DNA of 64,000 nucleotides from a bacterium (lineage in GTDB: Bacteria > SAR324 > XYD2-FULL-50-16): the NCBI GenBank assembly GCA_032250835.1, contig JAVVEA010000019.1:1-64000 (forward strand), written 5' to 3'. The position numbers and the translations under genes are program-made. The notes under the pieces are model-generated. The model worked only from the letters and a program-made list of their open reading frames with translations, searched no databases and was not told the origin of the DNA. Shown piece after piece: positions 1 through 11,323 of this stretch; the stretch's first letter is position 1; the number at the start of each line of letters is the position of its first letter.

Positions 1-284
1 CTCTCTTTTGTTCCCCCCAAAAGACGAGCAGACCAGTGAAAAGGTCTTCTTTGTACTCAAGTCAACTAGCTTAATCGACCCGAGTTTGCAAGAATATTTG
101 TGAAAAAAACTTCATCCTAAGCCGTTAATACAAGCGGCCCTAGCCCCAGTAGACCGCAGACCAGTCGCTAAATCGAAAGACCGAACAAAATCCCAAAGGC
201 TTTGGTTGCGGCTCAATGCTTTTTTCGGTAGTATGCCCGCTATACCAACAACACTGCCACCACCCGATCTATTTTTGCTTTCCG

Positions 285-3263
285 ATGGCCAAAAAGAAGG
301 ACGATAAAGAACTCAAGTTAGAGCTTACGTCAGACAAAACTGACGAACCTGAAGAACTTGAGGAAGAACCGGTCGAGTTAGAACCCGACGAAGTCATCCT
401 GCAAAGCGGCGGCACCGATGCCGAGGGACAAGAAACCTTTGGAGCTCTGCTGCCCAAGGCTGATTTTCTGCCCGAGCAATTGGGCATTATCGCCGTACAG
501 CACCGCCCCTTATTCCCGCATATGGTGATTCCTTTGGTGGTGGAAGGGGACATCTACCAAGAAACCTTGGTAGAAGCCCAAAAAGGGCAGGGATACGTGG
601 GCATCGCCCTCTCGACCCCTAAGTTCGACTCAGAAAACCCCAAGGTCGAGGACTTACACAAATACGGCGTTGTCGCGCGCATCGCCAAGGTCTTCGCCCA
701 AGACAGCCACGGCAGCCAGGTGCTGCTAGACGTTTTAGAGCGCATCCGCATCGTCGAGCCCCTAGCCTCGAAGGGCATCATGCGGGCTCGGGTAGAGTAT
801 GTGCACCAAGACCGAGTCAAGGTAAACGACGAGATCCGCGCCTATTCGCGCGAAATCCTGACCAACATGAAGGAGTTGATCCGTCTCAACCCGCTGATTA
901 AAGAAGAGCTCAATCAATTCATTAGCCAGATCAGCATCGACGACCCCTCGCGCCTAGCCGACTTTGCCGCCACCCTGACCAGCGCGGAAAAAGAAGAGTT
1001 GCAGGCCATTTTGGCTACCGTACCGATTGTGCCCCGGCTGGGCAAAACCCTGTTATTGATCAAAAAAGAACTGGAGCTTTCGCGCCTGCAAGCCGAGATC
1101 AGCCAAAAGATCGAAGAGCGCATCAGCGACCACCAGCGGGAGTTCTTTTTAAAAGAACAACTCAAAGAGATCCAAAAGGAACTGGGCATCAGCAAAGATG
1201 AGAAAACCCAGGTGCTTGAAAAGCTTTTGGCGAAGGCCAAAAAGCTGAACTTCTCAGAAGAAGTGCAAGAACGCTTTGATGAGGAGATGAACAAAATCGC
1301 CCTGTTGGACGTGCAAAGCCCTGAATTCAACGTCAGCCGGACCTATCTAGACTGGATCGTATCCTTGCCCTGGGGCTTGCATTCAAAAGAAAACCTGGAC
1401 ATCGTCCGGGCCGAAAAGGTCTTAGATGCCGACCACTACGGCCTTGAAGACATCAAAGAACGGATCATTGAGTTCATCGCCGCTATGAACCTGCGCCAAG
1501 ACAACTCCGGAACGATCCTTTGTTTCGTCGGCCCGCCGGGCGTCGGCAAAACCTCAATCGGTAAGTCCATCGCCCGCGCTATGGGCCGCAAGTTCTACCG
1601 CTTTTCCGTAGGCGGCATGCGCGACGAAGCGGAAATCAAGGGCCACCGTCGCACTTATATCGGGGCTATGCCCGGTAAGTTCATCCAAGCCTTAAAGGGA
1701 GCCAAGTACGCCAACCCGGTGATCATGCTCGACGAAATCGACAAGATCGGCTCCAGCTACCAAGGCGATCCCGCTTCAGCGCTGCTCGAAGTCTTAGACC
1801 CCGAGCAAAACAGCGCTTTTGCGGATCATTACCTGGACCTGCCCTTTGACCTATCCAAGGTGGTCTTCATCACCACCGCCAACCAGCTGGACACTATTCC
1901 GGCGGCCTTATTGGACCGGATGGAAGTGCTTCGGCTCTCGGGTTATATTGCCAACGAAAAGTTGCAAATCGCCAAGAAGTACCTGATCCCCAAGCAGCGT
2001 AAAGCCCACGGCATCAAAGGCAGCCAGATCAGCTTTGCCGACGGCGCTATCCGCCGGATCATCGACGGCTATGCTCGCGAAGCGGGGGTCCGCAAATTAG
2101 AAAACATGATCGAAAAGATCTGTCGCAAGCGAGCCACCGAGATCGTCCGTGGGGTTGAGCTTAAGCAGCCTCGGATCGGCGTCAGTCAAGTTAAAGACTA
2201 CTTGAAGAACCCGATCTTTGAAGACGACGAAATCCACGGCGAAGGGCGACCCGGCGTGGCCACAGGCTTGGCCTGGACCTCTATGGGTGGGTCGATATTG
2301 ACCATCGAGTCCAATTGGGTCCCCTCAAAGGGCCGCAGCTTCCAGCAGACCGGTCAGTTGGGCGAAGTGATGATCGAATCGGCCAAAATCGCCTACAGCT
2401 ACGTGTTAGCCAACGCCGAACGCTACGGCGGCAAGACCGAGTTTTTCGACGAAAAACACCTACATTTGCACGTCCCCGCAGGGGCGACGCCCAAAGACGG
2501 GCCTTCGGCGGGGGTCACCATGGCCTCTGTGTTGATTTCGATGATGCTCGACATCCCGCTCTTGCCCAAACTGGGCATGACCGGGGAACTAACGTTGGTC
2601 GGTGAGGTGCTCCCGATTGGTGGCTTGAAGGAAAAGGTGATCGCCTCAAGGCGCTCCGGGTTGACCCAAATCATCATCCCCGAAGCGAACCGCAAGGACT
2701 ACCTAGAGCTGCCCGACCATGTAAAGGAAAAGCTGGTGATCCATTTTGCCAAGACCTACGACGATGTCTTCCGCTATGCCTTTGACCTCAAGCCCATCTT
2801 TCCCCGGCCCAACCGCCGCAAGACCGATGAGCCGGAAAAAGACCATGGGGCCGCCCCAGCCAAAAAACCAGGACGACCCAAGAAGAACACAACGACGAAA
2901 GCTTCGGCCAAGAAGGTGGGTCGGCCCAAGAAAAACCTGACCGAAACCGCTGAACAGACCCAGGCGGAGGCTCCAACGGCTCGTGGACCCGGTCGACCTA
3001 AGAAAGTAGGACGGCCCAAGAAGAGCGAAGCTGAGAAGGCGGCACCAAAGAAAAAAGTAGGACGCCCCAAGAAGAGCCCAAGCGAAAAAGGGGTAGCCAA
3101 AAAAGTGGGGCGACCCAAAAAGAGCGAAGCTGAGAAGGCAGAGCCAAAGAAAAAGGTGGGGCGGCCCAAGAAAGTGGCGTCAACCCAAAAGGACTCCCAG
3201 GTCTCGACCGATGGAGCGCCTAAGAAGCGGCGCGGACGACCGCCAAAGGCTCCAAAGGAATAA
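285..3263 (+). CDS. lon: ATP-dependent Lon protease with acidic N-terminal extension and Lys/Arg-rich GRP-repeat C-terminal tail
   Basis: Walker A GPPGVGKT, GHRRTYIGAMPG, Walker B MLDEIDK, catalytic PKDGPSAG and GGLKEK. ATG at 285 preferred over ORF start 216. Confidence 0.97.
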   Translation: MAKKKDDKELKLELTSDKTDEPEELEEEPVELEPDEVILQSGGTDAEGQETFGALLPKADFLPEQLGIIAVQHRPLFPHMVIPLVVEGDIYQETLVEAQKGQGYVGIALSTPKFDSENPKVEDLHKYGVVARIAKVFAQDSHGSQVLLDVLERIRIVEPLASKGIMRARVEYVHQDRVKVNDEIRAYSREILTNMKELIRLNPLIKEELNQFISQISIDDPSRLADFAATLTSAEKEELQAILATVPIVPRLGKTLLLIKKELELSRLQAEISQKIEERISDHQREFFLKEQLKEIQKELGISKDEKTQVLEKLLAKAKKLNFSEEVQERFDEEMNKIALLDVQSPEFNVSRTYLDWIVSLPWGLHSKENLDIVRAEKVLDADHYGLEDIKERIIEFIAAMNLRQDNSGTILCFVGPPGVGKTSIGKSIARAMGRKFYRFSVGGMRDEAEIKGHRRTYIGAMPGKFIQALKGAKYANPVIMLDEIDKIGSSYQGDPASALLEVLDPEQNSAFADHYLDLPFDLSKVVFITTANQLDTIPAALLDRMEVLRLSGYIANEKLQIAKKYLIPKQRKAHGIKGSQISFADGAIRRIIDGYAREAGVRKLENMIEKICRKRATEIVRGVELKQPRIGVSQVKDYLKNPIFEDDEIHGEGRPGVATGLAWTSMGGSILTIESNWVPSKGRSFQQTGQLGEVMIESAKIAYSYVLANAERYGGKTEFFDEKHLHLHVPAGATPKDGPSAGVTMASVLISMMLDIPLLPKLGMTGELTLVGEVLPIGGLKEKVIASRRSGLTQIIIPEANRKDYLELPDHVKEKLVIHFAKTYDDVFRYAFDLKPIFPRPNRRKTDEPEKDHGAAPAKKPGRPKKNTTTKASAKKVGRPKKNLTETAEQTQAEAPTARGPGRPKKVGRPKKSEAEKAAPKKKVGRPKKSPSEKGVAKKVGRPKKSEAEKAEPKKKVGRPKKVASTQKDSQVSTDGAPKKRRGRPPKAPKE
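2860..3260 (+). repeat. Coding repeat: 8 GRP (K-K-V-G-R-P-K-K type) motifs in the Lon tail
   Basis: Eight GRP cores counted in the translation; exact DNA repeat aagagcgaagctgagaaggc at 3021-3040 and 3120-3139. Confidence 0.9.
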
Positions 3264-3433
3264 ACACACCCTCTCTAGGTCTCGCCTTAGAGCCCTAGAG
3301 GGCCCCATCACTGCCAGCGCCGAAATCACCGGGGCGCAACCTAGGCATTGGGGCCGCACCGCCACTTCCCTTTCCAGATCGATCCCAGTTTGGGGCTGCC
3401 CAGCCCCAAACTGAGGAGCACTGAAGCCCCTGA

Positions 3434-5863
3434 TCAGCAATCCAGCACTTCAGATTCCTTTAAGAGCCCTAGACGGACCAAACGCAACAGCGTAGCGGGT
3501 ACACGACTCGGCGTTACCGATACTTGGGTCATCCCCAACCCAGACATAGCCAATAAATCTTCCTCAAGCAGCCTCTGTTCGCCGCAAAAACGCAGTTTCA
3601 GGTCCGGGCGCAAACGGCGACCTCGCTCCGCCGCTAGTTCCACAAACCCCAACAGACTCGGACTGAACCGCAGAAAGGGGTCAGACATCAGGTCCATAGG
3701 GCCGTAGAGAGGACCGAAGCGAGACCAATCGTCGCGCGAAAAGCCCAGCGCCGTTTGCGTCAGATCATTCCCGCCGAAGCTAAAGAAAGAGGCATGCCGC
3801 GCCAATTCGGCGGCGTCCAGCGCGGCCGCAGGTAATTCGATCATCACCCCCCATTCCACCTCAAAGGGCGGCTGCAGGAATCCCCGCTCTTGGCACCATT
3901 GATCAAACAACGGCACCAACCCCTCGATCTCGTGACGGCCATATAAGAGGGCGTTCCACTCGGCGGCAACCCCCACAAAGGGCATCATCACCTGTAACCT
4001 AGGGAGTCGGTGGTGTTTCCGGTGCATCATCTCGCCGACCTCCAAAAAGGCCAAGACCATCATCCGGTACAGCTCGAAATGGGTCAGAGCCAAACGAGCG
4101 CCCCGGTGGCCCAGCATGGGATTCACCTCTCGTTGGGCTTCGATGGCCAAAACCCAATCCTCGGCCCGCCTCTCAGGCAGGAGCGCCGCCAGCTTTTGAG
4201 CGGCGCGGGTCGTCTCTTCGCCCGGCCGGGGCCAAAGTTCATGGCTAGGCAGGTCCAACAGCCGAAGACAAAAGTCCCCTTGGGGCACCCGGTCCAACAG
4301 CTTCAACAAATCCGCTTTGAGCCCTTCACCGGCCACCCGCAATAGTTCGTTCCGGGACTCACCCGCCCCCAGCACTAAGGCCCTCAAGCGGGTCAATTGG
4401 GGCTCTTCGCCTAAGATGTTCTCCAACCGCAGCAGCCCCACCCCCTGGGCCCCCCAATCCAAGGCCCGTCCGATTTCCTTGCTTTGTTCTGCATTAACCA
4501 ACAGACCCATCAACTTAGGTAGTTCCCCCATGACCTTAGCCAATCGTCCTAAGGCTTCGGACTCCGGAGCAGCGCAGGGGCAAAGGCCTTCATAAAGTGC
4601 CGGGGGCGCTTCCAGGGGAACCTCCAACGCAACCTCTTGACCTTCGGTGATCAAGTGTCGATCCAACCGCAAAGCGGCCCCTTCAAAAGCGGCTTCTGGT
4701 AGCATCAGAGCAGGTAGGCCCAAAGAGCGCGCCATTACCGGGCCGTGGGAGGCATAGCCGCCCTGGGTGGTGATCACCGCCTCGGCGGCTTGCAGGGCCG
4801 CCAAATCCTTTGGATACACCTCTTCAACGATCAGAATCTTCGGACCCGGCGGCGCAGACAACAGCGCTTGGGCCGAAAAATAGGCTTTCCCGCTCGCCGC
4901 GCCAGCGTTGCCCGGTATAGCCAACCCCAACTCGAAGGTCCGTTGGGGGTCCGGCCCCACCAAGCGCCCCACCAAAAGCTCCTCCACCTCACTAGGCGCT
5001 AGGGCCTCAGCCAATTGGCGCGGCGTTAGGTGACCCCGTTGGTGCAAGTCCAACAACATTTCTAAACGAGCCTTGGGGTTAGCGATAAAGCTTTCTAAAC
5101 CCAACAGACGCAACCCGCCCGGCCCAGCCAAAAAATGCACCCCGCAAGGGCGCAGCAGGCAGAGTTCCACCGACCTCATGGCCTCGGCTAATGAGGCCGA
5201 TAAGCCCTCGGGAACCTCCTGTTCAACCAACTGCGCGGGTAAAGGATAGGGCTCAAAAAAGCTCCAGGGAACCACTTCTAGCTGGGGTGCGCACAAGCCG
5301 GTGCGGACATCTCGAGCGCGGTAGCGGCCCATCCAGACCGACCCAGCTTCGGGCAGTTGGATTTCCAAGGCTACCCAGGCACCCTCGGGGGCCTGGGCGG
5401 CCAGAAGACCCAAAAACTCGGCCAATTGCCGCTCTCGGTTAGGCGGAAACCCTTGGGCGCGCCCCAGTTGGAGCAGCCGCAAGGCCTCCTCGTCGCTGAG
5501 AAGGTTTTTATTGGCCGGGCGTTGGTTCAGGTCCCCCCAAGTCTCCAGGAGCCGCCTCCAGGCACCTCGCAGGGCCCGGTTAGGCGGAGTGGCATTGGCT
5601 AGTGCTTCGCTCAATCCCAGATAATCCACTTGGGCCCGGGGCGCAAAATCTAGGCTGTCGTAGAGCGACAGGCTTAGGTAAGCCCCGTCGGGAACCTCGG
5701 CCCAAATCAGACGGGCCAGGGATTCGCGCGCCTTGCGGTCCATTGGGACCAACTCGGACGCCGGGGCCACCCAAGGAGTCGTTCCGGGTAACTCCAACTG
5801 AGAAAGCAAATCTAGCCAAGGGGCTAAATCGGTTTGGGCTTTAAGCCGAGTGAAGGGCATCAT
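3434..5863 (-). CDS. Pyruvate phosphate dikinase-like PEP-utilising protein with degenerate N-terminal ATP-grasp domain
   Basis: Swivel domain TTQGGYASHGPVMARSLG; PEP domain motifs GVGLLR, RLLDLPSHE, EVNPMLGHRGARL, MIELPAAAL, FSFGGNDLTQ, CGEQ. Canonical GGKG, SVRSG and LQTR motifs are absent. Confidence 0.85.
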   Translation of the reverse strand: MMPFTRLKAQTDLAPWLDLLSQLELPGTTPWVAPASELVPMDRKARESLARLIWAEVPDGAYLSLSLYDSLDFAPRAQVDYLGLSEALANATPPNRALRGAWRRLLETWGDLNQRPANKNLLSDEEALRLLQLGRAQGFPPNRERQLAEFLGLLAAQAPEGAWVALEIQLPEAGSVWMGRYRARDVRTGLCAPQLEVVPWSFFEPYPLPAQLVEQEVPEGLSASLAEAMRSVELCLLRPCGVHFLAGPGGLRLLGLESFIANPKARLEMLLDLHQRGHLTPRQLAEALAPSEVEELLVGRLVGPDPQRTFELGLAIPGNAGAASGKAYFSAQALLSAPPGPKILIVEEVYPKDLAALQAAEAVITTQGGYASHGPVMARSLGLPALMLPEAAFEGAALRLDRHLITEGQEVALEVPLEAPPALYEGLCPCAAPESEALGRLAKVMGELPKLMGLLVNAEQSKEIGRALDWGAQGVGLLRLENILGEEPQLTRLRALVLGAGESRNELLRVAGEGLKADLLKLLDRVPQGDFCLRLLDLPSHELWPRPGEETTRAAQKLAALLPERRAEDWVLAIEAQREVNPMLGHRGARLALTHFELYRMMVLAFLEVGEMMHRKHHRLPRLQVMMPFVGVAAEWNALLYGRHEIEGLVPLFDQWCQERGFLQPPFEVEWGVMIELPAAALDAAELARHASFFSFGGNDLTQTALGFSRDDWSRFGPLYGPMDLMSDPFLRFSPSLLGFVELAAERGRRLRPDLKLRFCGEQRLLEEDLLAMSGLGMTQVSVTPSRVPATLLRLVRLGLLKESEVLDC

Positions 5864-6639
5864 TTAAAATATCTCGCTCCAGACCGGATGATTTGGGCCG
5901 GCTGGGGGCCGCAAGCTCTGCAAAGCAATGCCCGCAGCTTAGCGACCTCGCTAAAGGCGGGCCCTTCAATCTGGAACCATATGCGGTCACCAAAACGGAC
6001 CCGTCCCCACTGAAAGAGGCTATACAACTCGCGCACCTCTTCACCTTGGTGGAACAAGCGTACCTTAAGTAGCGGAAAGGTTTCCTCGTAGTCCCGCACC
6101 ACCCGGCCTAGGGCCTCTAAGTTGCCGTGGTGGAACAACTCGTTACGGACCTCTACGGGGTATTTGGGGCTACGGTTTTCCAAGCGGCGCGGAGATTGCA
6201 CCCAGTGGGCTTGGGCGGGCGTCGTGGGTTGCGCTTCCTTTAAATCCCCAAAATCCAAGGGCCGACGCCGACGCAACAGAGCCTTCAGTTGCGCCAACAA
6301 AGCGGCAACTTGACTCAAAAGCGCGGGGTCTTGGGGCCGTAGGTAAAGTAATACCAGTTCAAAGGGTATCAGCGGGACACGCAATTCGGGCAGAGCCGGA
6401 ACGATCCAAAGAGGCGATTCCTGGCGGGGCAGGACCAGCAACAGATCAAAGCCGGACAGGCGCTTTAACTGCGACCAGAGCATATCCCATTGCAGCAGTT
6501 GGGCCGACAGATTGAGGCTGATGAATTGGAAGTTTTCAGAAACCAGCCGCTGGTGGAGCTCCGAGGGTTCCCAACGCTCCGGCAACTGCCGGAGCGATGA
6601 GAGGAGTCCTTCTGCGACGGGCTGACCGGCGCGCGGCAT
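5860..6639 (-). CDS. Hypothetical protein with C-terminal HPr-like domain
   Basis: Last ~95 aa (VEVRNELFHHGN...SLFQWG...FGDRIWFQIEG) align by eye with HPr around His15 and Ser46; 4-bp overlap with the PPDK-like gene. Confidence 0.7.
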   Translation of the reverse strand: MPRAGQPVAEGLLSSLRQLPERWEPSELHQRLVSENFQFISLNLSAQLLQWDMLWSQLKRLSGFDLLLVLPRQESPLWIVPALPELRVPLIPFELVLLYLRPQDPALLSQVAALLAQLKALLRRRRPLDFGDLKEAQPTTPAQAHWVQSPRRLENRSPKYPVEVRNELFHHGNLEALGRVVRDYEETFPLLKVRLFHQGEEVRELYSLFQWGRVRFGDRIWFQIEGPAFSEVAKLRALLCRACGPQPAQIIRSGARYFK

Positions 6640-6653
6640 AGGGGTCGCGAGAC

Positions 6654-8570
6654 TTAAGCCTCGACGCTTAGGCCAGGCGGGTTCACAAAACTAGGCACGT
6701 AGCCATTGGCGTTTGCGTCTTCCAGGTGTTTTTCCTTGGAAAGGTCCGTAAACCCAGCCGAGACGGTGGCCAAGAGTTCGCTGATCACGTTACTGACCGA
6801 CTGCATGGTGTTTTCCTTGCGTTTGATCGTGGTCAGGTTGATCTCTAGGTAAATTCCGGGCCGCAGGTGGTAAGGGTTTACCTGACGGTTGAAGGCCTCA
6901 AAACGGTCTTCTAAGAAGTCCAGCCGCTGGTCCAAGATCACCCGCTCCGGGGGGTTTTCATACTTGAAGGTATCGTGGATCTTGCCGCGCAGCATCTGGA
7001 ACTTTTTGGTCAAATACTTGCGCTTTTCGGCGAAGGTATCGTTGAGCTTTTCCATGTCGCTTTTTTCGGGCTGCACAAAGAATATCTCGTCCCACAATTT
7101 AACGGGCTGTTCAGCCTCGTCTGCCGGAGGGAGGTCCAGCTTGACGGGCTCTTCTTTCTTCTTAGCCCCACCGAAGAGTTTGGCAAAAAAGCCAAGTTTC
7201 TCATCCGAGGTTTTGTGGATCGGGCCGCCACCTAGATAAATCTGGCTGACTGACTGATAATCCAAGAAACCCTGCTCGTCGCGGAAATTCTGGTGCACCT
7301 TTTCGTAAACTTCCCAAAGCTTTTGGGCCTGGACCTCAAACTCTTCAATCTGGGTACAGTAGGCGTTACGCAGGGCGTGCAATTGCTCGTCGTCGTAATA
7401 GGCCAGCGTGGCGGCGTAACGCTCGTCGGGCAGTTCCGCACCGGCTTGCTCGCCATATTCGCGGATCACCACTTTACGGGCTTGCTTGAAGTTTTCGATG
7501 TGCTGATAGCCCAGGCGGGTCTTGTCTAAGATTTGGGTCAACGAGTTGACCGCTTTATCAAAGCCCTGGTTGCGCATATTCTCGCGGTCCACAATGCGCT
7601 TGATGTTCTCGCGCACATTCAGCGGGTCGTACTCGCTTTGGGGGATTTCCGAGCCCATATCGCCTAAGCCTTGCAAGAAATCCTTGGAAAGCCATTTGTA
7701 CTGGGGCGACTCGCCTCCGTCTTCAAAGTCCAGATGGGTCTCAAGGCGCTTGAGGCGTTCGATGATCAAAGCGGCTTCGTCCATTTCTGGCTGGCCTTCT
7801 TCGGTCAGTTGGGCTTGAAGCGCCGAGATCTCGTGATCCACTTGGTGCATGATGTAGTCGCTCAAGACCTCGCGGATGATGGTCTCGGTGCCGGTCTGGA
7901 AGTGGAAGATCGGGTTGAGCAGTTCGTTTTCCGAAACGTTGATCGCCAAACTGACGTCCGTAACCGTTTCGGGCTTGATCTTGTTGTCCGAGTAATGCCC
8001 CTTGACCAGTGTGAAGGCGTTGTCCGTACCGACCATCAGGCCAATATCGGTCTTTTCGCGCAGCAGCTTGTTGGTGCGGGCTTGCAGGTCCGAAACACCG
8101 TGTTCCAAGTGGCCTTGGAGATGGCTGTAGATGTTAACCACCGAGCGCTCTAGGGCCTCGTTGTTAAACTGTTCGGCGCCGCCAATCTCTTCGACTAACT
8201 CAGCCACGCTCTGGGGCGTGTAGCGGGTCAGGTTCTTTTCTTCTTCCTGGTCGATCAGGCCGCGGAACTTCTTGGACATCTCGTCTTCGACGGTGACCAA
8301 GTAGCGGTTGTACATGTTATGGAAGCCCTGGTTGAAGTAGTTGTGCAACAACTCCTTGACCGAGCCGGTCACCTGCAACTTCTCCAAGACCTCGGGCGGT
8401 AACTTGGAAGACAAATGGTTTAAGACCTTGTCCACCTCTTCGTCGATGATGCGCTGACTTTCGATATACTCGTTGCGCCCATCGCGGTTGGCGCTGTTGC
8501 GAGAACCGACGGCACTAGCGTCTTCTGGGTGAACCCACTGATCGTTCAAATTGCTTTTTTCCTGCGTCAT
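6654..8570 (-). CDS. cfpA: Cytoplasmic filament protein A (CfpA) homologue
   Basis: Blocks recalled from Treponema CfpA: HPE.SAVGSRNS, KLPPEVLE, NYFNQ, NRYLVTVEDEM, HLQGH, LNVRENIK, GYQHIENFK, LPDERY, NPYHLRPG, IKRK. ATG at 8570 has SD GAAGGTGG; the ORF extends to 8654. Confidence 0.88.
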   Translation of the reverse strand: MTQEKSNLNDQWVHPEDASAVGSRNSANRDGRNEYIESQRIIDEEVDKVLNHLSSKLPPEVLEKLQVTGSVKELLHNYFNQGFHNMYNRYLVTVEDEMSKKFRGLIDQEEEKNLTRYTPQSVAELVEEIGGAEQFNNEALERSVVNIYSHLQGHLEHGVSDLQARTNKLLREKTDIGLMVGTDNAFTLVKGHYSDNKIKPETVTDVSLAINVSENELLNPIFHFQTGTETIIREVLSDYIMHQVDHEISALQAQLTEEGQPEMDEAALIIERLKRLETHLDFEDGGESPQYKWLSKDFLQGLGDMGSEIPQSEYDPLNVRENIKRIVDRENMRNQGFDKAVNSLTQILDKTRLGYQHIENFKQARKVVIREYGEQAGAELPDERYAATLAYYDDEQLHALRNAYCTQIEEFEVQAQKLWEVYEKVHQNFRDEQGFLDYQSVSQIYLGGGPIHKTSDEKLGFFAKLFGGAKKKEEPVKLDLPPADEAEQPVKLWDEIFFVQPEKSDMEKLNDTFAEKRKYLTKKFQMLRGKIHDTFKYENPPERVILDQRLDFLEDRFEAFNRQVNPYHLRPGIYLEINLTTIKRKENTMQSVSNVISELLATVSAGFTDLSKEKHLEDANANGYVPSFVNPPGLSVEA

Positions 8571-8779
8571 AACCACCTTCGGTTTCGTCTGGATGGACTC
8601 AAAAGAGGCCCCCACAAACTGCTCAGACTTGTCCGCAAAGTCTAGGGTTGACACCCCTGGATGTCAAGCCAAAACGGTTTTTGGCTAGGGCGGCCTTTGA
8701 CATTTTACCGGCGCTGCTCCAAAGTGGGCGCACGCCGAAGCGAGCAGGATAGGCCAGCAATCTTTAAGGGAACCCTCAG

Positions 8780-9277
8780 ATGAGCGACAGCAACGTAACC
8801 CAGGCTTACAAGCCTTCGGTTGAACCCGCCGTGATCGAGCGGGTGCAAGCGGCGATCGAGGCAATATACCAAGAAAAGATGCACCGCGTCACCCGCATCA
8901 AAGACCATATTTGGGTGATCAGCCAGACGGGCTATAACTTAAGCGTGATCGTCACCCACCTGTTGGTGATCTTTGATGCTGAGATGTTCGAGACCATGGC
9001 CGCGGAGCGGCAGCCTTACCTTGAGGAGTTATTGCATCTAAACGCCCACCAAGTAAAAGACGCCAAGTTTTGTTTGCTCAAGGAAGCGACCCATTTGCGC
9101 GTGCTTTGCGACAACACAAAAATTGACGAAGAGCGGATCCGCAACTATCTGACCGAGTTCAAGGAACTTTACTTAGTCTTGGAAACCCAGCTGGCCGAGC
9201 GCTTCTTTCCGGACCTGGAAACCGCCGAAGACGTCGCCACTTCCGTCGAAGCCCCGCCTGAGGACCAAATTATATGA
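8780..9277 (+). CDS. Hypothetical protein, possibly YbjN/CesT chaperone-like fold
   Basis: Acidic 165-aa ORF with EELLHLN...AKFCL pattern; overlaps ccmA start. Confidence 0.55.
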   Translation: MSDSNVTQAYKPSVEPAVIERVQAAIEAIYQEKMHRVTRIKDHIWVISQTGYNLSVIVTHLLVIFDAEMFETMAAERQPYLEELLHLNAHQVKDAKFCLLKEATHLRVLCDNTKIDEERIRNYLTEFKELYLVLETQLAERFFPDLETAEDVATSVEAPPEDQII

Positions 9278-9984
9278 ACGCCGCGCCTTTGCTGCAAATC
9301 GCCCAGGTCCGCAAAGATTTTGGCTACAAGCGCATTTTAAAAGACGTATCCTTTGATCTAAACGCCGGGGACTTCACGCTTTTGCTAGGTCAAAACGGCG
9401 CGGGCAAATCCACGCTACTGAAGATTCTTTCGGGCCTGATGCGCCCGAGCCAAGGTGAGGTTTTCTACCGGGGAGCCAACCTCAAAGAAGACCCCCAACT
9501 ACTACGCCAAGATTTGGGTGTGATCGGCCACCACCCGCAGGTCTACGGGGACCTCTCGGCCTTTGAAAACCTGCTTTTCTTCGCCAAGCTGCGCCACCTT
9601 AAGGACCCTAAGGCCCTAGTTGAAGACGCACTGGAACGAGTGGACCTGGCCAGGTTCAAAAACGCCCAGGTGAAAAACTTCAGTTCCGGCATGTTCAAAC
9701 GGATGGGCATCGCCCGTTTGATGATCAGCCGACCCCGTTTGCTGTTGCTCGACGAACCCTATACGGGGCTTGACTACAAGTCGGTGGACTTTTTTAACCG
9801 TTTTTTGGTGGACTTCGCCCGCTCTGGCGGGGCTATTTTGATGGTGACCCACCAACTGGACGTTTGCTTTGAAATCTCTAGCCGCATCGCCATCTTAGAA
9901 CAGGGGTGCATCACCGAAGACCATCCCCGCAGCAGCTTCAACTACCAAGAATTGATCGACCATTACCAACGAGCCACCCAATGA
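9274..9984 (+). CDS. ccmA: Heme ABC exporter ATP-binding protein
   Basis: GQNGAGKST, FSSGM signature, LLLLDEP; precedes ccmB and ccmC. Confidence 0.9.
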   Translation: MNAAPLLQIAQVRKDFGYKRILKDVSFDLNAGDFTLLLGQNGAGKSTLLKILSGLMRPSQGEVFYRGANLKEDPQLLRQDLGVIGHHPQVYGDLSAFENLLFFAKLRHLKDPKALVEDALERVDLARFKNAQVKNFSSGMFKRMGIARLMISRPRLLLLDEPYTGLDYKSVDFFNRFLVDFARSGGAILMVTHQLDVCFEISSRIAILEQGCITEDHPRSSFNYQELIDHYQRATQ

Positions 9985-10652
9985 TCGCAGACCTACTGAC
10001 GATCTTAAAAAAAGACCTAACCTTGGATTTGCGCCGTGCCGAGAACTTCATCGCCATGTTGTTCTTTTCGGTGATCATCCTTTTGGTCTTTTCTTTTTCT
10101 CTGCCGCCCGACGAAGAGGCCCACCAATCTCTAGCGCCGGGCGTGTACTGGGTGACTTTCTTGATGTCTGGGATGTTGGGGCTCTCAAAAAACTTCCAAC
10201 TGGAAAAAGAAATGGGCTGTATGGAGGCGTTGCTGATCGCGCCCATCAGCCGAGGCGCGATTTTTATGGGCAAGATGCTGGGGACTTTGGTGTTCCTGCT
10301 CTTGATGCAGATGATCTTGATCCCCGTCTTTTCCCTGCTCTTTTACAGCCCCGCTATGGGCTTCTTTTTTGAGCTATTGGGCCTTTCGGCGGTGACCGCC
10401 TTGGGCTTTGCCTCTTTGGGTACGCTCTTAAGCGGCCTGACCACCGATGTGCGGTTTAAGGAAATCTTACTACCGATCCTGCTCTTCCCACTACTGGTGC
10501 CCTTGCTTTTGGCTGCGGTGCAGATTATGTCGGGAATTTTTGCAGGTCAGGGTTTTCAAGCCGAGTTGGACTGGTTAAAGTTGCTGGTCGGCTTTGATCT
10601 GATCTTCCTGATTGCCGCCTATTTGACCTTTGATTTCGTTATGGAGCTTTGA
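9981..10652 (+). CDS. ccmB: Heme exporter protein B
   Basis: Multi-TM; EKEMGCMEALLIAP and EILLPILLFPLLVP motifs; ATGA overlap with ccmA. Confidence 0.9.
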   Translation: MIADLLTILKKDLTLDLRRAENFIAMLFFSVIILLVFSFSLPPDEEAHQSLAPGVYWVTFLMSGMLGLSKNFQLEKEMGCMEALLIAPISRGAIFMGKMLGTLVFLLLMQMILIPVFSLLFYSPAMGFFFELLGLSAVTALGFASLGTLLSGLTTDVRFKEILLPILLFPLLVPLLLAAVQIMSGIFAGQGFQAELDWLKLLVGFDLIFLIAAYLTFDFVMEL

Positions 10653-11323
10653 TGGGTTTTTCGCGTATCTTAGGCCTAGCCACGGCCCTGGCCCTGGCGG
10701 TCACCTTCTATTTGGTCTTTGTTTGGGCCCCCCTGGAACAAGCCATGGGCTTCGTACAGAAGATCATGTACATCCATGTCCCTTCGGTGCTGGTCTGTTA
10801 CGCCGCCTTCTTCATCGCCTTTTTAGCCAGCATCGGCTACCTATGGAAGCGCAAGGAAGGTTATGATGTCGCCGCCTACGCCGCCAGCGAGGTAGGGGTG
10901 ATCTTCTGCGGCTTGACGCTGGTCACCGGGGCCATCTGGGGCCGCCCGACCTGGAATACCTATTGGACCTGGGACGCACGGCTGACGACCACCTTGATCT
11001 TGTTCTTGATTTTTGTGGGTTATTTGTTGCTGCGGCGCTTTGTGGAATATAGCGAACAGCAGGCCCGCTTCGCCGCCATCATCGCGATCATCGGCTTCAT
11101 GGACATCCCCTTGATCCACCAAGCAGTGACTTGGTGGCGCACGCTACACCAGCCCTCAACCATGTTCAGCCGCAAGGGCCAGATGATCGACGACCCGCTC
11201 AAATGGATGCTTTACCTTAGCATGGTCGCCTTTTACCTGCTCTTCGCCTACCTCCTCACCAAGCGCATCCAGATGGAACGAGCCGAGCGTGAGCTGCACC
11301 GCATGTTAGCCAACGCGGAATAG
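10652..11323 (+). CDS. ccmC: Heme exporter protein C
   Basis: YIHVP, WWD motif TGAIWGRPTWNTYWTWDARLT, WWRTLHQ. Confidence 0.95.
   Translation: MGFSRILGLATALALAVTFYLVFVWAPLEQAMGFVQKIMYIHVPSVLVCYAAFFIAFLASIGYLWKRKEGYDVAAYAASEVGVIFCGLTLVTGAIWGRPTWNTYWTWDARLTTTLILFLIFVGYLLLRRFVEYSEQQARFAAIIAIIGFMDIPLIHQAVTWWRTLHQPSTMFSRKGQMIDDPLKWMLYLSMVAFYLLFAYLLTKRIQMERAERELHRMLANAE

Follow-up and report, generated by a model that had tools for sequence, protein, structure and literature searches.

Gene order at the cfpA locus

The question raised by this locus is why the gene of a CfpA filament protein should be followed, in the 64,000-nucleotide stretch of DNA analysed here (the window), by the genes of a 259-residue protein and of an 809-residue PPDK-like protein. 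According to the ORF list of the window, all three genes are co-oriented on the minus strand:

6654 to 8570, minus strand: cfpA paralogue, 638 aa from the ATG at 8570 (NCBIfam NF040882)
8639 to 8667, minus strand: promoter-like TTGACA-17-TAGACT upstream of cfpA, 10 of 12 matches
5860 to 6639, minus strand: middle gene, 259 aa, TP_0747 family, two HPr-like domains (modelled) and a disordered linker
3434 to 5863, minus strand: PPDK paralogue, 809 aa, built of the three PPDK domains, the N domain being shrunken

As read from the sequence, the TAA stop codon of cfpA is separated by 14 nt from the ATG of the middle gene, the stop of which shares a 4-bp overlap (ATGA) with the start of the PPDK-like gene, confirming the three-gene layout described in an earlier, sequence-only reading of this DNA. 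Flanking the trio are, on one side, a Lon protease gene that converges on it (216-3263, plus strand) and, on the other, a divergent ccmABC-like operon (9274-11323, plus strand).

The first gene is a CfpA gene by its score of 619.8 bits with NF040882 (cut-off 500), and the window's genome contains three of these (matches at C22, C10 and C7). The mechanical ORF (6654..8654) would give 666 aa from a GTG, but the promoter-like site straddles that codon and AGGTGG precedes the ATG at 8570, which makes the latter the better start, as the earlier reading had placed it. Three promoter-like sites occur in the region versus 1.5 expected in shuffles, so that such a site is weak taken alone.

Conserved linkage and joint loss

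Within the window's phylum, 15 of 15 loci show the order cfpA, middle gene, PPDK-like gene. In a wider neighbourhood survey of 80 named loci, mostly of Spirochaetota, the PPDK-like gene lies downstream of the middle gene in 79, the contig of the sole other locus ending 824 bp past the middle gene, and cfpA lies upstream in 74, the remaining six contigs beginning less than 430 bp from the middle gene. The gap between the middle and PPDK-like genes has a median of 21 bp (52 of 75 gaps are at most 30 bp or overlapping). This arrangement is far beyond chance, and the linkage on which the earlier reading leaned is conserved in two phyla wherever the contig permits.

The middle and PPDK-like genes are, moreover, gained or lost jointly. 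Within one family, the middle gene and the linked PPDK-like gene occur side by side in 10 genomes and are both missing from nine, with CfpA being retained in eight of the nine, and two genomes (G010 and G001) carry a syntenic Lon-cfpA-ccm locus from which both genes are absent. Among the 88 genomes of the window's phylum, CfpA is found in 41 and the middle gene in 31; CfpA is present in all 31, and the middle gene in none of the 47 CfpA-less genomes. The 10 genomes in which CfpA occurs without the other two genes would suit an explanation in which the neighbours are functionally unrelated and their order is preserved only through common descent or a promoter that they share. This explanation is nonetheless hardly credible, given that the order survives across two phyla and a large divergence (24-45% identity among the PPDK-like proteins, 19-49% among the middle proteins), that the middle gene occurs only where CfpA does, that start and stop codons overlap, that two of the genes are lost together, and that the trio is co-regulated in T. 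denticola, where TDE0842-0844, the same three genes, are listed as co-repressed in Table 5 of PMC3914990. The trio is one conserved module, which accompanies the CfpA filament gene in spirochetes and in a second phylum.

In T. pallidum, some 1.1 kb separates TP0746 (Ppdk) from TP0748 (CfpA), both on the reverse strand (PMC3373638, PMC10013896), and the Pfam 38.1 name of the middle family is TP_0747_N; the T. pallidum trio cited in the sequence-only reading therefore holds. The window's locus shares its three families and their order with TP0748-TP0747-TP0746 and TDE0842-0843-0844 (PMC3373638, PMC10013896, PMC3914990), and differs in that its copies are the most diverged, with an unrecognisable N domain and a shorter middle protein, and in that they belong to another phylum, one with three CfpA paralogues.

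A PPDK paralogue with a changed nucleotide site

Three parts of the PPDK-like protein bear on what it may do:

4964 to 5863, minus strand: ATP-grasp-derived N domain (about residues 1-300), six nucleotide-site positions all changed
4745 to 4747, minus strand: codon of the catalytic His373 in the swivel domain (GGYASHGPVMAR), from residue alignment
3437 to 4558, minus strand: PEP/pyruvate-binding barrel (residues 436-809), PF02896 E 3.1e-39

Domain matches cover the swivel (PF00391, residues 341-394) and PEP-binding (PF02896, residues 452-792) domains, while PPDK_N has no match in the protein, the N domain of which is missed by the profile models, and TIGR01828 scores 252.8 bits versus a cut-off of 843. 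The AF2 model (pLDDT 85.5) superposes on the whole of PPDK, with Z 42.0 and 755 residues aligned to 1kbl (model 1..802, PPDK 2..873) and 755-775 residues at Z 41-42 over 1kbl and 1vbg. The "Enzyme-I-like" architecture proposed earlier is contradicted by this same three-domain superposition and by the lack of a match to an EI-type N-terminal domain in the protein.

The window's protein resembles PPDK also in its swivel His and in a PEP/pyruvate site of which all seven positions are intact (R, E, R, E, N, D, C), but it differs in having none of the six nucleotide-site residues. The catalytic His is invariant in all 75 linked proteins and in 15 of 15 unlinked PPDKs. Of the 75 linked proteins, 64 have all seven PEP-site residues; the 11 that have lost PEP-site residues, both His residues still being present, all come from a group with records titled SAR324, Delta- or Lambdaproteobacteria. 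Of the six nucleotide-site residues, 12 of the 15 unlinked PPDKs have every one, and the linked proteins keep none (32 rows), one (40) or two (3), with replacements that are themselves conserved: K by R in 64, R by V in 60, E by K or R in 66, and Q by E or D in 64.

In the tree the 15 unlinked PPDKs are grouped in one clade (support 1.0), separate from the 75 linked proteins, with the window group on a very long branch. All of 10 linked proteins compared fall below the TIGR01828 cut-off, and in five of five Spirochaetota genomes a canonical PPDK (1227-1393 bits) coexists with the linked one (640-695 bits), which stands beside cfpA and the TP_0747-family gene. The window's genome, too, encodes a canonical PPDK (1327.8 bits) at another locus, and also a pyruvate kinase. 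The residues of the window's PPDK-like protein and the presence of these two enzymes mean that it cannot function as a canonical dikinase. To that extent the earlier claim that the protein is not a dikinase stands; it fares less well with a treponeme copy, which argues for metabolic PEP turnover.

This copy is found in G119, a treponeme genome of 1.14 Mb with trio ORFs of 678, 344 and 901 aa, the motif NELFHNGN in its middle protein and, in its PPDK-like protein, the residues R,V,E,R,E,K typical of the linked group. The linked paralogue is the only full-length PPDK homologue of G119 (the best TIGR01828 match, 608.5 bits, is below the cut-off), and the genome has no match to the pyruvate kinase family PF00224, so that the linked protein is the sole visible route from PEP to pyruvate and a metabolic role in this conversion seems to be needed there. 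Such a case speaks for the linked paralogue being a working metabolic enzyme, namely a dikinase that has diverged, has had its nucleotide or phosphoryl-acceptor site rebuilt and is held at or close to the CfpA ribbon, with the middle protein as its tether or regulator; the linkage would then reflect localised PEP/pyruvate metabolism and not signalling. Consistent with that, the replacements R, V, K/R and E/D, conserved in 60-66 of 75 rows, suggest that a binding site has been maintained and has not decayed, ppdk ranks with the strongly expressed T. pallidum genes (PMC8525777), and TP0746 is said in PMC10013896 to catalyse, "most likely", the conversion of PEP+AMP+PPi to pyruvate+ATP. This explanation is nonetheless rather unlikely, in that the window's N domain has become shorter, escapes PPDK_N and is stripped of its site residues, the window's genome has no apparent metabolic need of the protein given its own canonical PPDK and pyruvate kinase, the PEP site is also gone in the 11 linked proteins, and the invariant His of the partner is left unexplained.

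The middle protein

The partner in question was modelled with AF2 (pLDDT 80.3), and its features are as follows:

6244 to 6558, minus strand: N-terminal HPr-like domain (residues 28-132; TP_0747_N), from VIA-align and Atlas
5863 to 6183, minus strand: C-terminal HPr-like domain (residues 153-259), from structure alignment of the model
6130 to 6132, minus strand: codon of His170 (NELFHxGN motif, directly before helix 171-187), from DSSP of the model

The protein has no match in local Pfam or NCBIfam; its family name TP_0747_N comes from Pfam 38.1 via Atlas, and it has 1160 relatives at E<=1e-5, with PF27497 in 120 of 120 of those listed. In VIA-align the N-terminal domain aligns with the HPr structure 1cm3 (Z 7.1, rmsd 2.5, 80 residues, model 37..126), and in Atlas TP_0747_N (TM 0.81) is followed by PTS-HPr clusters (TM 0.60-0.65). 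The C-terminal domain, which is the best-conserved part of the protein (mean column identity 64%), aligns with 1opd (Z 8.0, rmsd 2.1, 78 residues, model 157..245, HPr 1..85), and HPr chains take the top four places among 48,161 chains.

Both domains are thus modelled as HPr-like, at the level of fold only and without sequence similarity. The scores are modest (HPr Z 7.3-8.0 versus 6.0-6.5 for unrelated alpha/beta sandwiches; Foldseek E-value 0.036), a profile of the C domain finds no HPr among PDB sequences, and hhalign of this domain against 30 HPr sequences gives a probability of 0.6%. The HPr fold proposed from the sequence is therefore borne out by the model, whereas homology to HPr, with Z at most 8 and such an hhalign value, is not. 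His170 is invariant in 75 of 75 relatives from two phyla, the other invariant residues sitting on helix A and helix B, and it is predicted to match the position of HPr His15, as judged from aligned ranges and DSSP rather than residue-level superposition. Its +2 position is Gly, where the G-L-H-x-R motif of the 30 HPr sequences has Arg.

Alpha/beta arrangements like the HPr-like fold are common at these Z scores, which would also suit two non-catalytic accessories of the CfpA ribbon, the PPDK paralogue being a pseudoenzyme scaffold, or a PEP/pyruvate sensor without phosphotransfer, the middle protein a two-domain adaptor, and the conserved His residues serving fold or binding. The stepwise loss of catalytic residues (nucleotide site in all 75, PEP site in 11) and the very long branch of the window group fit such roles, as do the high abundance of the PPDK-like protein and its co-fractionation with CfpA (PMC3931704). 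They are nonetheless improbable, since the retention of the seven PEP-site residues together with the His in 64 of 75 proteins, the window's fast-evolving copy included, is difficult to account for unless these proteins catalyse a reaction or at the very least bind a ligand, and since His170 is invariant across the two phyla.

A possible PEP-driven relay

The best reading, to which a probability of roughly 40% is given, is a PEP-driven His-to-His relay acting on CfpA. In this model, PEP would place a phosphoryl group onto His373 of the PPDK paralogue, following which the swivel domain would hand it to His170 of the HPr-like C domain, rather than to AMP/PPi, with the C domain presumably docking at the site of the former nucleotide site. 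The carrier, phosphorylated or not, might then act on the CfpA paralogue to affect ribbon assembly, bundling or anchoring. This last step is the least supported, and beyond gene order and co-fractionation no connection between carrier and CfpA was found. Linkage, joint loss, the separate paralogue, the residue pattern, the HPr-like fold with its invariant His170 and the co-repression in T. denticola were counted for the relay. Counted against it were the lack of HPr sequence similarity, the modest fold scores, the Gly at +2 of His170, the 11 proteins without a PEP site, the only-PPDK case of G119, and the abundance of the PPDK-like protein in T. denticola and T. pallidum, which (PMC3931704, PMC8525777) is no less to be expected of an enzyme or of a structural protein than of a signalling one.

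The proposed relay resembles PTS Enzyme I and HPr in its PEP barrel and swivel His (PF02896, PF00391), in a small partner that has an HPr-like fold and a His capping helix 1 at its N-terminal end, and in the chemistry, which would be the same PEP-dependent His-to-His transfer. It differs in that the donor has no EI-type N-terminal HPr-binding subdomain (TIGR01417, 86 bits versus a cut-off of 341.7) and in that the partner has two HPr-like domains, no PF00381 signature and no Arg at +2 of the His. The window's genome carries its own EI and HPr elsewhere; in three trio genomes (G019, G023 and G035) a search with PF00381 gave no match. Non-transport PEP relays that regulate or fuel targets other than sugar uptake are represented by DhaM-DhaL and PtsP-NPr, in which a PEP-utiliser swivel domain is likewise combined with an HPr-type carrier, and both middle-protein domains have DhaM clusters among their closest structural matches (TM 0.63). 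Their carriers, however, are recognisable PF00381 domains fed by EI, whereas in the trio a PPDK paralogue would act as the donor and a cytoskeletal filament would be the target. Rifampin phosphotransferase, as described in PMC4844700, is likewise a PPDK/PEPS-derived swivel-His enzyme turned to a new acceptor, with an HPr-like subdomain within its acceptor-binding domain; it has kept a working ATP-grasp and lost the PEP domain, the reverse of the window's protein, which retains its PEP domain but has lost the ATP site.

The trio may, on the relay reading, be an undescribed phosphate relay, the outcome of which would be the coupling of the cytoplasmic ribbon to the PEP:pyruvate ratio.

Organization and conservation of the cfpA-linked unit

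The three genes of the unit are read in the same direction and are bracketed on one side by a gene for Lon protease and on the other by a ccmABC-like operon.

Features of the window in and around the unit
216-3263, plus strand: Lon protease gene, convergent with the PPDK-like gene
3434..5863, minus strand: PPDK-like gene, 809-aa ORF
5860..6639, minus strand: middle gene, 259-aa ORF
6654..8570, minus strand: cfpA, 638 aa from ATG 8570 (mechanical ORF 6654..8654 from GTG)
8667-8639, minus strand: promoter-like TTGACA-17-TAGACT, with GTG 8654 inside
Divergent: ccmABC-like operon

The arrangement described in the sequence-only reading, namely three co-oriented genes with a 14-bp gap and a 4-bp overlap, is seen directly in the window, where the TAA stop of cfpA is followed by 14 nt and then by the ATG of the middle gene, and where the stop of the middle gene (TGA) and the start of the PPDK-like gene (ATG) share the four bases ATGA. 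The same reading had bounded cfpA at 8570, which agrees with the likely start of the gene, since the GTG at 8654 falls within the promoter-like site and an AGGTGG lies just 5' of ATG 8570. A terminator scan of the region is not informative, with 7 sites where shuffled sequence gives an expectation of 8.5. Among sequencing runs that match positions 3300-8800 there are two of DNA, with small shares (0.08 and 0.05), and none of RNA. The neighboring Lon protease is 1015 aa long, has an AT-hook motif toward its C-terminal end (residues 978-989) and is also found beside the unit at 8 other loci (L018-L024, L030) of family f1 of the window's phylum.

The product of the first gene passes the NCBIfam equivalog test for CfpA (NF040882, 619.8 bits vs a cut-off of 500), with residues 41-638 aligned to profile positions 9-583 of 605, and is one of three CfpA genes in its genome. 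CfpA is usually described as a spirochete protein; it is present in 41 of the 88 species genomes that make up the window's phylum, mostly as three paralogues per genome, while none of the 45 genomes of family f6 encodes it. The record titles of the relatives L064-L076 from this phylum read SAR324, Delta- or Lambdaproteobacteria.

The survey of cfpA neighborhoods for all three genes that the sequence-only reading had suggested bears out the linkage. Among the first 41 genomes searched in the window's phylum, 15 besides the window's own have a PPDK-like gene next to cfpA, and the order cfpA, middle gene, PPDK-like gene is kept in 15/15 fetched loci, six of which (in genomes G019, G020, G023, G032, G034, and G035) have a second cfpA downstream. 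A scan of public species genomes with an alignment of the C domain of the middle protein gave at least 577 confirmed stretches, the best 80 of which come from Leptospirales, Treponema, Marispirochaeta, Gracilinema, and other Spirochaetota and from metagenome-assembled genomes labeled SAR324, Delta- or Lambdaproteobacteria. Within these best 80, the PPDK-like gene lies downstream of the middle gene in 79, the exception being L120, whose contig ends 824 bp past the middle gene, and cfpA lies upstream in 74, the other six contigs beginning less than 430 bp from the middle gene. The median gap between the middle and PPDK-like genes is 21 bp. Six Leptospiraceae/Leptonemataceae loci of the 80 (L078, L081, L084, L090, L130, L140) have approximately 5 kb inserted ahead of the PPDK-like gene, at ∼8.3-14 kb in each locus, and the insert holds an ORF of ∼750-860 aa in at least three of them (L078, L130, L140). 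The linkage of the three genes is thus real and old.

The distribution of the genes shows how they are tied to one another. The middle gene is present in 31 of the 88 species genomes of the window's phylum, all 31 of which also encode CfpA, and in 0 of the 47 genomes of that phylum that lack CfpA. Of the f1 genomes, 10 carry the middle gene together with the linked PPDK-like gene and 9 carry neither of them; two genomes, G010 (98% complete) and G001, keep the synteny Lon-cfpA-orf165-ccmABC and miss exactly the middle and PPDK-like genes. This joint presence and absence, together with the synteny of G010 and G001, indicates that the two genes behave as one unit, which goes with a CfpA gene but is not required for it. 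Fused forms did not turn up at E ≤ 1e-5 when alignment A5 was searched against proteins of 824-2350 aa, which is weak evidence.

The residue counts below were taken from two 75-row alignments (A5 and A6), comprising 60 of the best 80 of the at least 577 stretches and 15 loci from the window's phylum. These leave out L063, L066, L073, and L125, which are the same places as L029, L031, L032, and L025, as well as L077, whose middle gene occupies two ORFs, and a further 15 loci where the middle or the PPDK-like ORF is truncated at a contig end, fragmented (L103), or outside the length filters. In L103, from a Spirochaetota metagenome-assembled genome, all three genes lie in several ORFs each (5192-10989) and may be pseudogenes or reflect poor assembly.

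The linked PPDK-like protein

The window's PPDK-like protein scores 252.8 bits on the PPDK profile TIGR01828, below the cut-off of 843.45, with only profile positions 339-856 matched, whereas the control, the true PPDK encoded elsewhere in the same genome, reaches 1327.8 bits and 168.7 bits on PPDK_N. That genome also encodes Enzyme I (EI), HPr, and pyruvate kinase elsewhere. The swivel His domain (PF00391, E = 5.4e-12) and the PEP barrel (PF02896, E = 3.1e-39) are recognized in the window's protein. None of the 16 linked proteins from the window's phylum has a significant PPDK_N match, and two give faint traces. Ten of ten diverse linked proteins, i.e. those encoded beside cfpA and the middle gene, match TIGR01828 over its full length at 487-723 bits, also below the cut-off. 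In an AF2 model of the window's protein (pLDDT 85.5) all three PPDK domains, ATP-grasp, swivel His, and PEP barrel, are found, and the model superposes on the PPDK structure 1kbl with Z 42.0 over 755 residues (1..802 against 2..873), although the N domain may have been drawn toward the fold of other linked PPDKs present in the folding alignment.

Six nucleotide-site positions were scored as they occur in the genome's own PPDK, namely K of GGKGANL, R of SVRSGA, D and E of QDIEF, and Q and R of LQTR. For the positions other than Lys22 and Arg337 we take the nucleotide-site role to hold, and invariance in canonical PPDKs serves as the internal control. The role of Lys22 is described in the accessible part of PMC4844700, and PDB titles cover Lys22 and Arg337 (1jde, 2dik), the mutants K22A, R337A, and T453A being named there. 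Twelve of the 15 unlinked PPDKs keep all six residues; the 75 linked proteins never keep more than two (none in 32, one in 40, two in 3), and the window's protein keeps 0/6. The replacements are themselves conserved across the 75 linked proteins, with K→R in 64, R→V in 60, E→K/R in 66, and Q→E/D in 64. The catalytic His is present in 75/75 linked and 15/15 unlinked proteins, and all seven PEP-site residues are present in 64/75 and 15/15, respectively; the window's protein has both the swivel His (H373) and an intact PEP/pyruvate site (R, E, R, E, N, D, C; 7/7).

A tree of the 75 linked and 15 unlinked proteins places the unlinked ones in a clade with support 1.0. Midpoint rooting sets the window's group outside everything, which was read as a long-branch effect, and the unrooted split alone was used. 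The extreme case is formed by the window's protein and its nearest relatives from G003 and G007, which sit on a long branch, have a shortened N domain, and keep none of the six nucleotide positions. Both kinds of protein occur side by side in 5/5 Spirochaetota genomes, and a PPDK that passes the cut-off is encoded by 113 of the 121 genomes of one spirochete order, many with a second match at ∼650 bits. The cfpA-adjacent "PPDK" is a distinct paralogue, its nucleotide site rebuilt, and not the housekeeping enzyme.

The sequence-only reading had proposed that this protein is not a dikinase but a dedicated EI. The first half of that proposal holds up, in that canonical dikinase activity of the window's own protein is very unlikely with 0/6 nucleotide-site residues. 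The second half does not extend to the architecture: the EI profile TIGR01417 gives 86 bits against a cut-off of 341.7, the EI-type N-terminal HPr-binding domain PF05524 has no match at E ≤ 0.1, and in the model the N domain superposes on that of PPDK and not on EI. The Z 42 superposition on whole PPDKs and the lost nucleotide site together make the protein a PPDK derivative, not an EI in architecture, which can plausibly carry out just the PEP/pyruvate-to-His half reaction. A comparison of the His loop among the genome's EI, canonical PPDKs, and linked PPDKs gave no discriminating pattern.

Two further observations concern PPDKs in the window's phylum. The second, unlinked PPDKs L145-L147 of family f7 (genomes G035, G032, and G034) keep 0, 4, and 3 of the six nucleotide positions, with the PEP site intact. 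In G023, a 2.4-Mb genome in which the linked protein is the only PPDK-like one, the sole pyruvate kinase match (C1:2083045-2083526) is broken in two, and a TAA lies in frame.

The middle protein and its HPr-like domains

The middle protein belongs to the TP_0747 family: the ESM Atlas matches its C domain to PF29819 (TM 0.92) and its N domain to PF27497, "TP_0747_N" (TM 0.81), both rows reaching the bar for a name, and PF27497 is carried by 120/120 relatives among the matches listed. Pfam 38.1 already files the family under these two entries, for whose members the sources give only the name "hypothetical protein"; the local Pfam copy, which is without both models, and NCBIfam gave no match.

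In the AF2 model, built from a 15-row alignment (pLDDT 80.3), a disordered linker connects two domains. The C domain (residues 157-245) is modeled as beta-alpha-beta-beta-alpha-beta-alpha and aligns with HPr 1opd at Z 8.0 and an rmsd of 2.1 Å over 78/85 residues, covering the whole of HPr, and HPr or Crh fills each of the top 27 rows of its structure list. When the domain was compared exhaustively with 48,161 chains, ranks 1-4 went to HPr (Z 6.6-7.3) and rank 9 to NPr, with unrelated sandwiches trailing at Z 6.0-6.3; Foldseek alone gives E = 0.036. The N domain (residues 37-126) aligns with HPr 1cm3 at Z 7.1, and in the independent Atlas model the nearest entries for both domains, after clusters of the family itself, are PTS-HPr (TM 0.59-0.65). 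What the models show of the HPr fold claimed in the sequence-only reading is a modest resemblance at the level of the fold, and not an HPr sequence signature: PF00381 has no Pfam match at E ≤ 1 in the protein, the C-domain profile finds only chance-level matches among PDB sequences (best E 0.068, none HPr), and hhalign against 30 HPr sequences gives a probability of 0.6%.

Twelve columns are invariant across the 75 rows (P81, N166, H170, G172, N173, E175, L208, F209, W211, G226, L235, F258), and of the ten in the C domain, nine fall within the stretch that starts at the loop preceding helix A and ends at the strand following helix B. H170, present in 75/75, stands directly before the modeled helix 171-187 (DSSP), and by the aligned ranges and DSSP, as distinct from a residue-level alignment, we infer that it would mirror the place of HPr His15. 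Two residues after H170 there is an invariant Gly, where the HPr sequences used for comparison have Arg (motif G-L-H-x-R).

Shorter forms also occur. In two reduced genomes of 1.6-1.7 Mb the middle gene is present as separate N- and C-domain ORFs, of 172 + 117 aa in L073 (genome G035; 7328-7846 + 7977-8330) and of 177 + 109 aa in L077 (7319-7852 + 8001-8330). Fourteen genomes of family f7 (e.g. G032:C74:25077-25406) show a second, weaker match to the C domain only (51-84 bits), in short frames of ∼120-200 aa, and the Atlas further contains a Spirochaetota cluster of 178 aa and one of 121 aa in which Myxococcota is the commonest phylum.

A possible PEP-driven phosphorelay

The three genes form a conserved module, in which a CfpA gene is joined by the gene for a tandem HPr-like protein that has a single invariant His and by that for a PPDK paralogue, which has kept its His and PEP site with the nucleotide site rebuilt or lost. 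In the model preferred here, PEP would phosphorylate His373 of the PPDK-like protein, which would hand the phosphoryl group to His170 of the middle protein, with an output on the CfpA filament. Of the mechanisms that draw on every conserved feature this relay is the simplest, and a probability of roughly 40% is assigned to it. A complex prediction for residues 57-809 of the PPDK-like protein and 28-259 of the middle protein scored 0.37, 0.04, and 0.10 against a mark of 0.32, with 75-row alignments and no control pairs.

Against the relay stand the modest fold evidence and the lack of an HPr-type Arg after H170, as well as the PEP site, which is degraded in 11/75 linked members. One of the two main rivals is a non-catalytic accessory pair, in which neither protein would perform chemistry; set against the invariance of both histidines, this alternative is judged quite unlikely.

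The treponemes bear on a second alternative. In T. pallidum, TP0746 (901 aa) and TP0748 (678 aa) are both on the reverse strand, ∼1.1 kb apart, according to the accessible text of PMC3373638. That ppdK of this species is treated as a metabolic enzyme, as the sequence-only reading has it, is confirmed by PMC10013896, where TP0746 is a glycolytic PPDK "most likely" yielding pyruvate and ATP. The 1.14-Mb treponeme-type genome G119 encodes ORFs of 901, 344, and 678 aa at 810.7-816.5 kb, with the linked-type residue pattern and an NELFHNGN motif; the "PPDK"-annotated protein of this syphilis-type genome thus has the same rebuilt nucleotide site. A profile search of G119 found no PPDK over the TIGR01828 cut-off and no pyruvate kinase match, so that it appears to depend metabolically on the linked paralogue. 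This apparent dependence also counts against the relay, and with it a divergent dikinase tethered to the filament comes into view as the other main rival, which we regard as unlikely.

The relay in its broadest form would be an unrecognized, PEP-driven His-to-His phosphorelay, running from a PPDK paralogue without ATP-grasp chemistry through a tandem HPr-like TP_0747 carrier to the CfpA ribbon, and ancient in Spirochaetota and a second phylum, the syphilis-type 1.1-Mb genome included; this wider claim is doubtful. T. denticola shows joint repression of TDE0842, TDE0843, and TDE0844 (PMC3914990, Table 5), and among the 16 major proteins of its envelope fraction TDE0844 is band 1 and CfpA band 3 (PMC3931704, Table 2).

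Implications

Published annotations already show the gene order, and the families have catalog entries. In the openly accessible main text of the literature, a functional link within the trio was not found in print, nor was any paper on TP0747 or PF27497, TDE0843 and TDE0844 appearing in an expression table only. If true, the relay would be a new variant of PEP-dependent phosphotransfer, and it is clear that the cfpA-linked PPDK is reclassified whichever reading holds.

To our knowledge, the function and control of the CfpA ribbon are an open question in spirochete cell biology; a cfpA mutant is reported to be affected in ribbon number and placement, chromosome segregation, and cell division (Izard et al. 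2001). The ribbons gain two genetic partners that look obligate, along with a concrete hypothesis at the biochemical level, and a family named only as hypothetical gains a structural reading as tandem HPr-like folds with one invariant His. Since G119 has the paralogue alone and no pyruvate kinase, and most of the spirochetes searched also encode canonical PPDK, the reaction that metabolic reconstructions give to TP0746, with the wording "most likely" (PMC10013896), merits direct assay.
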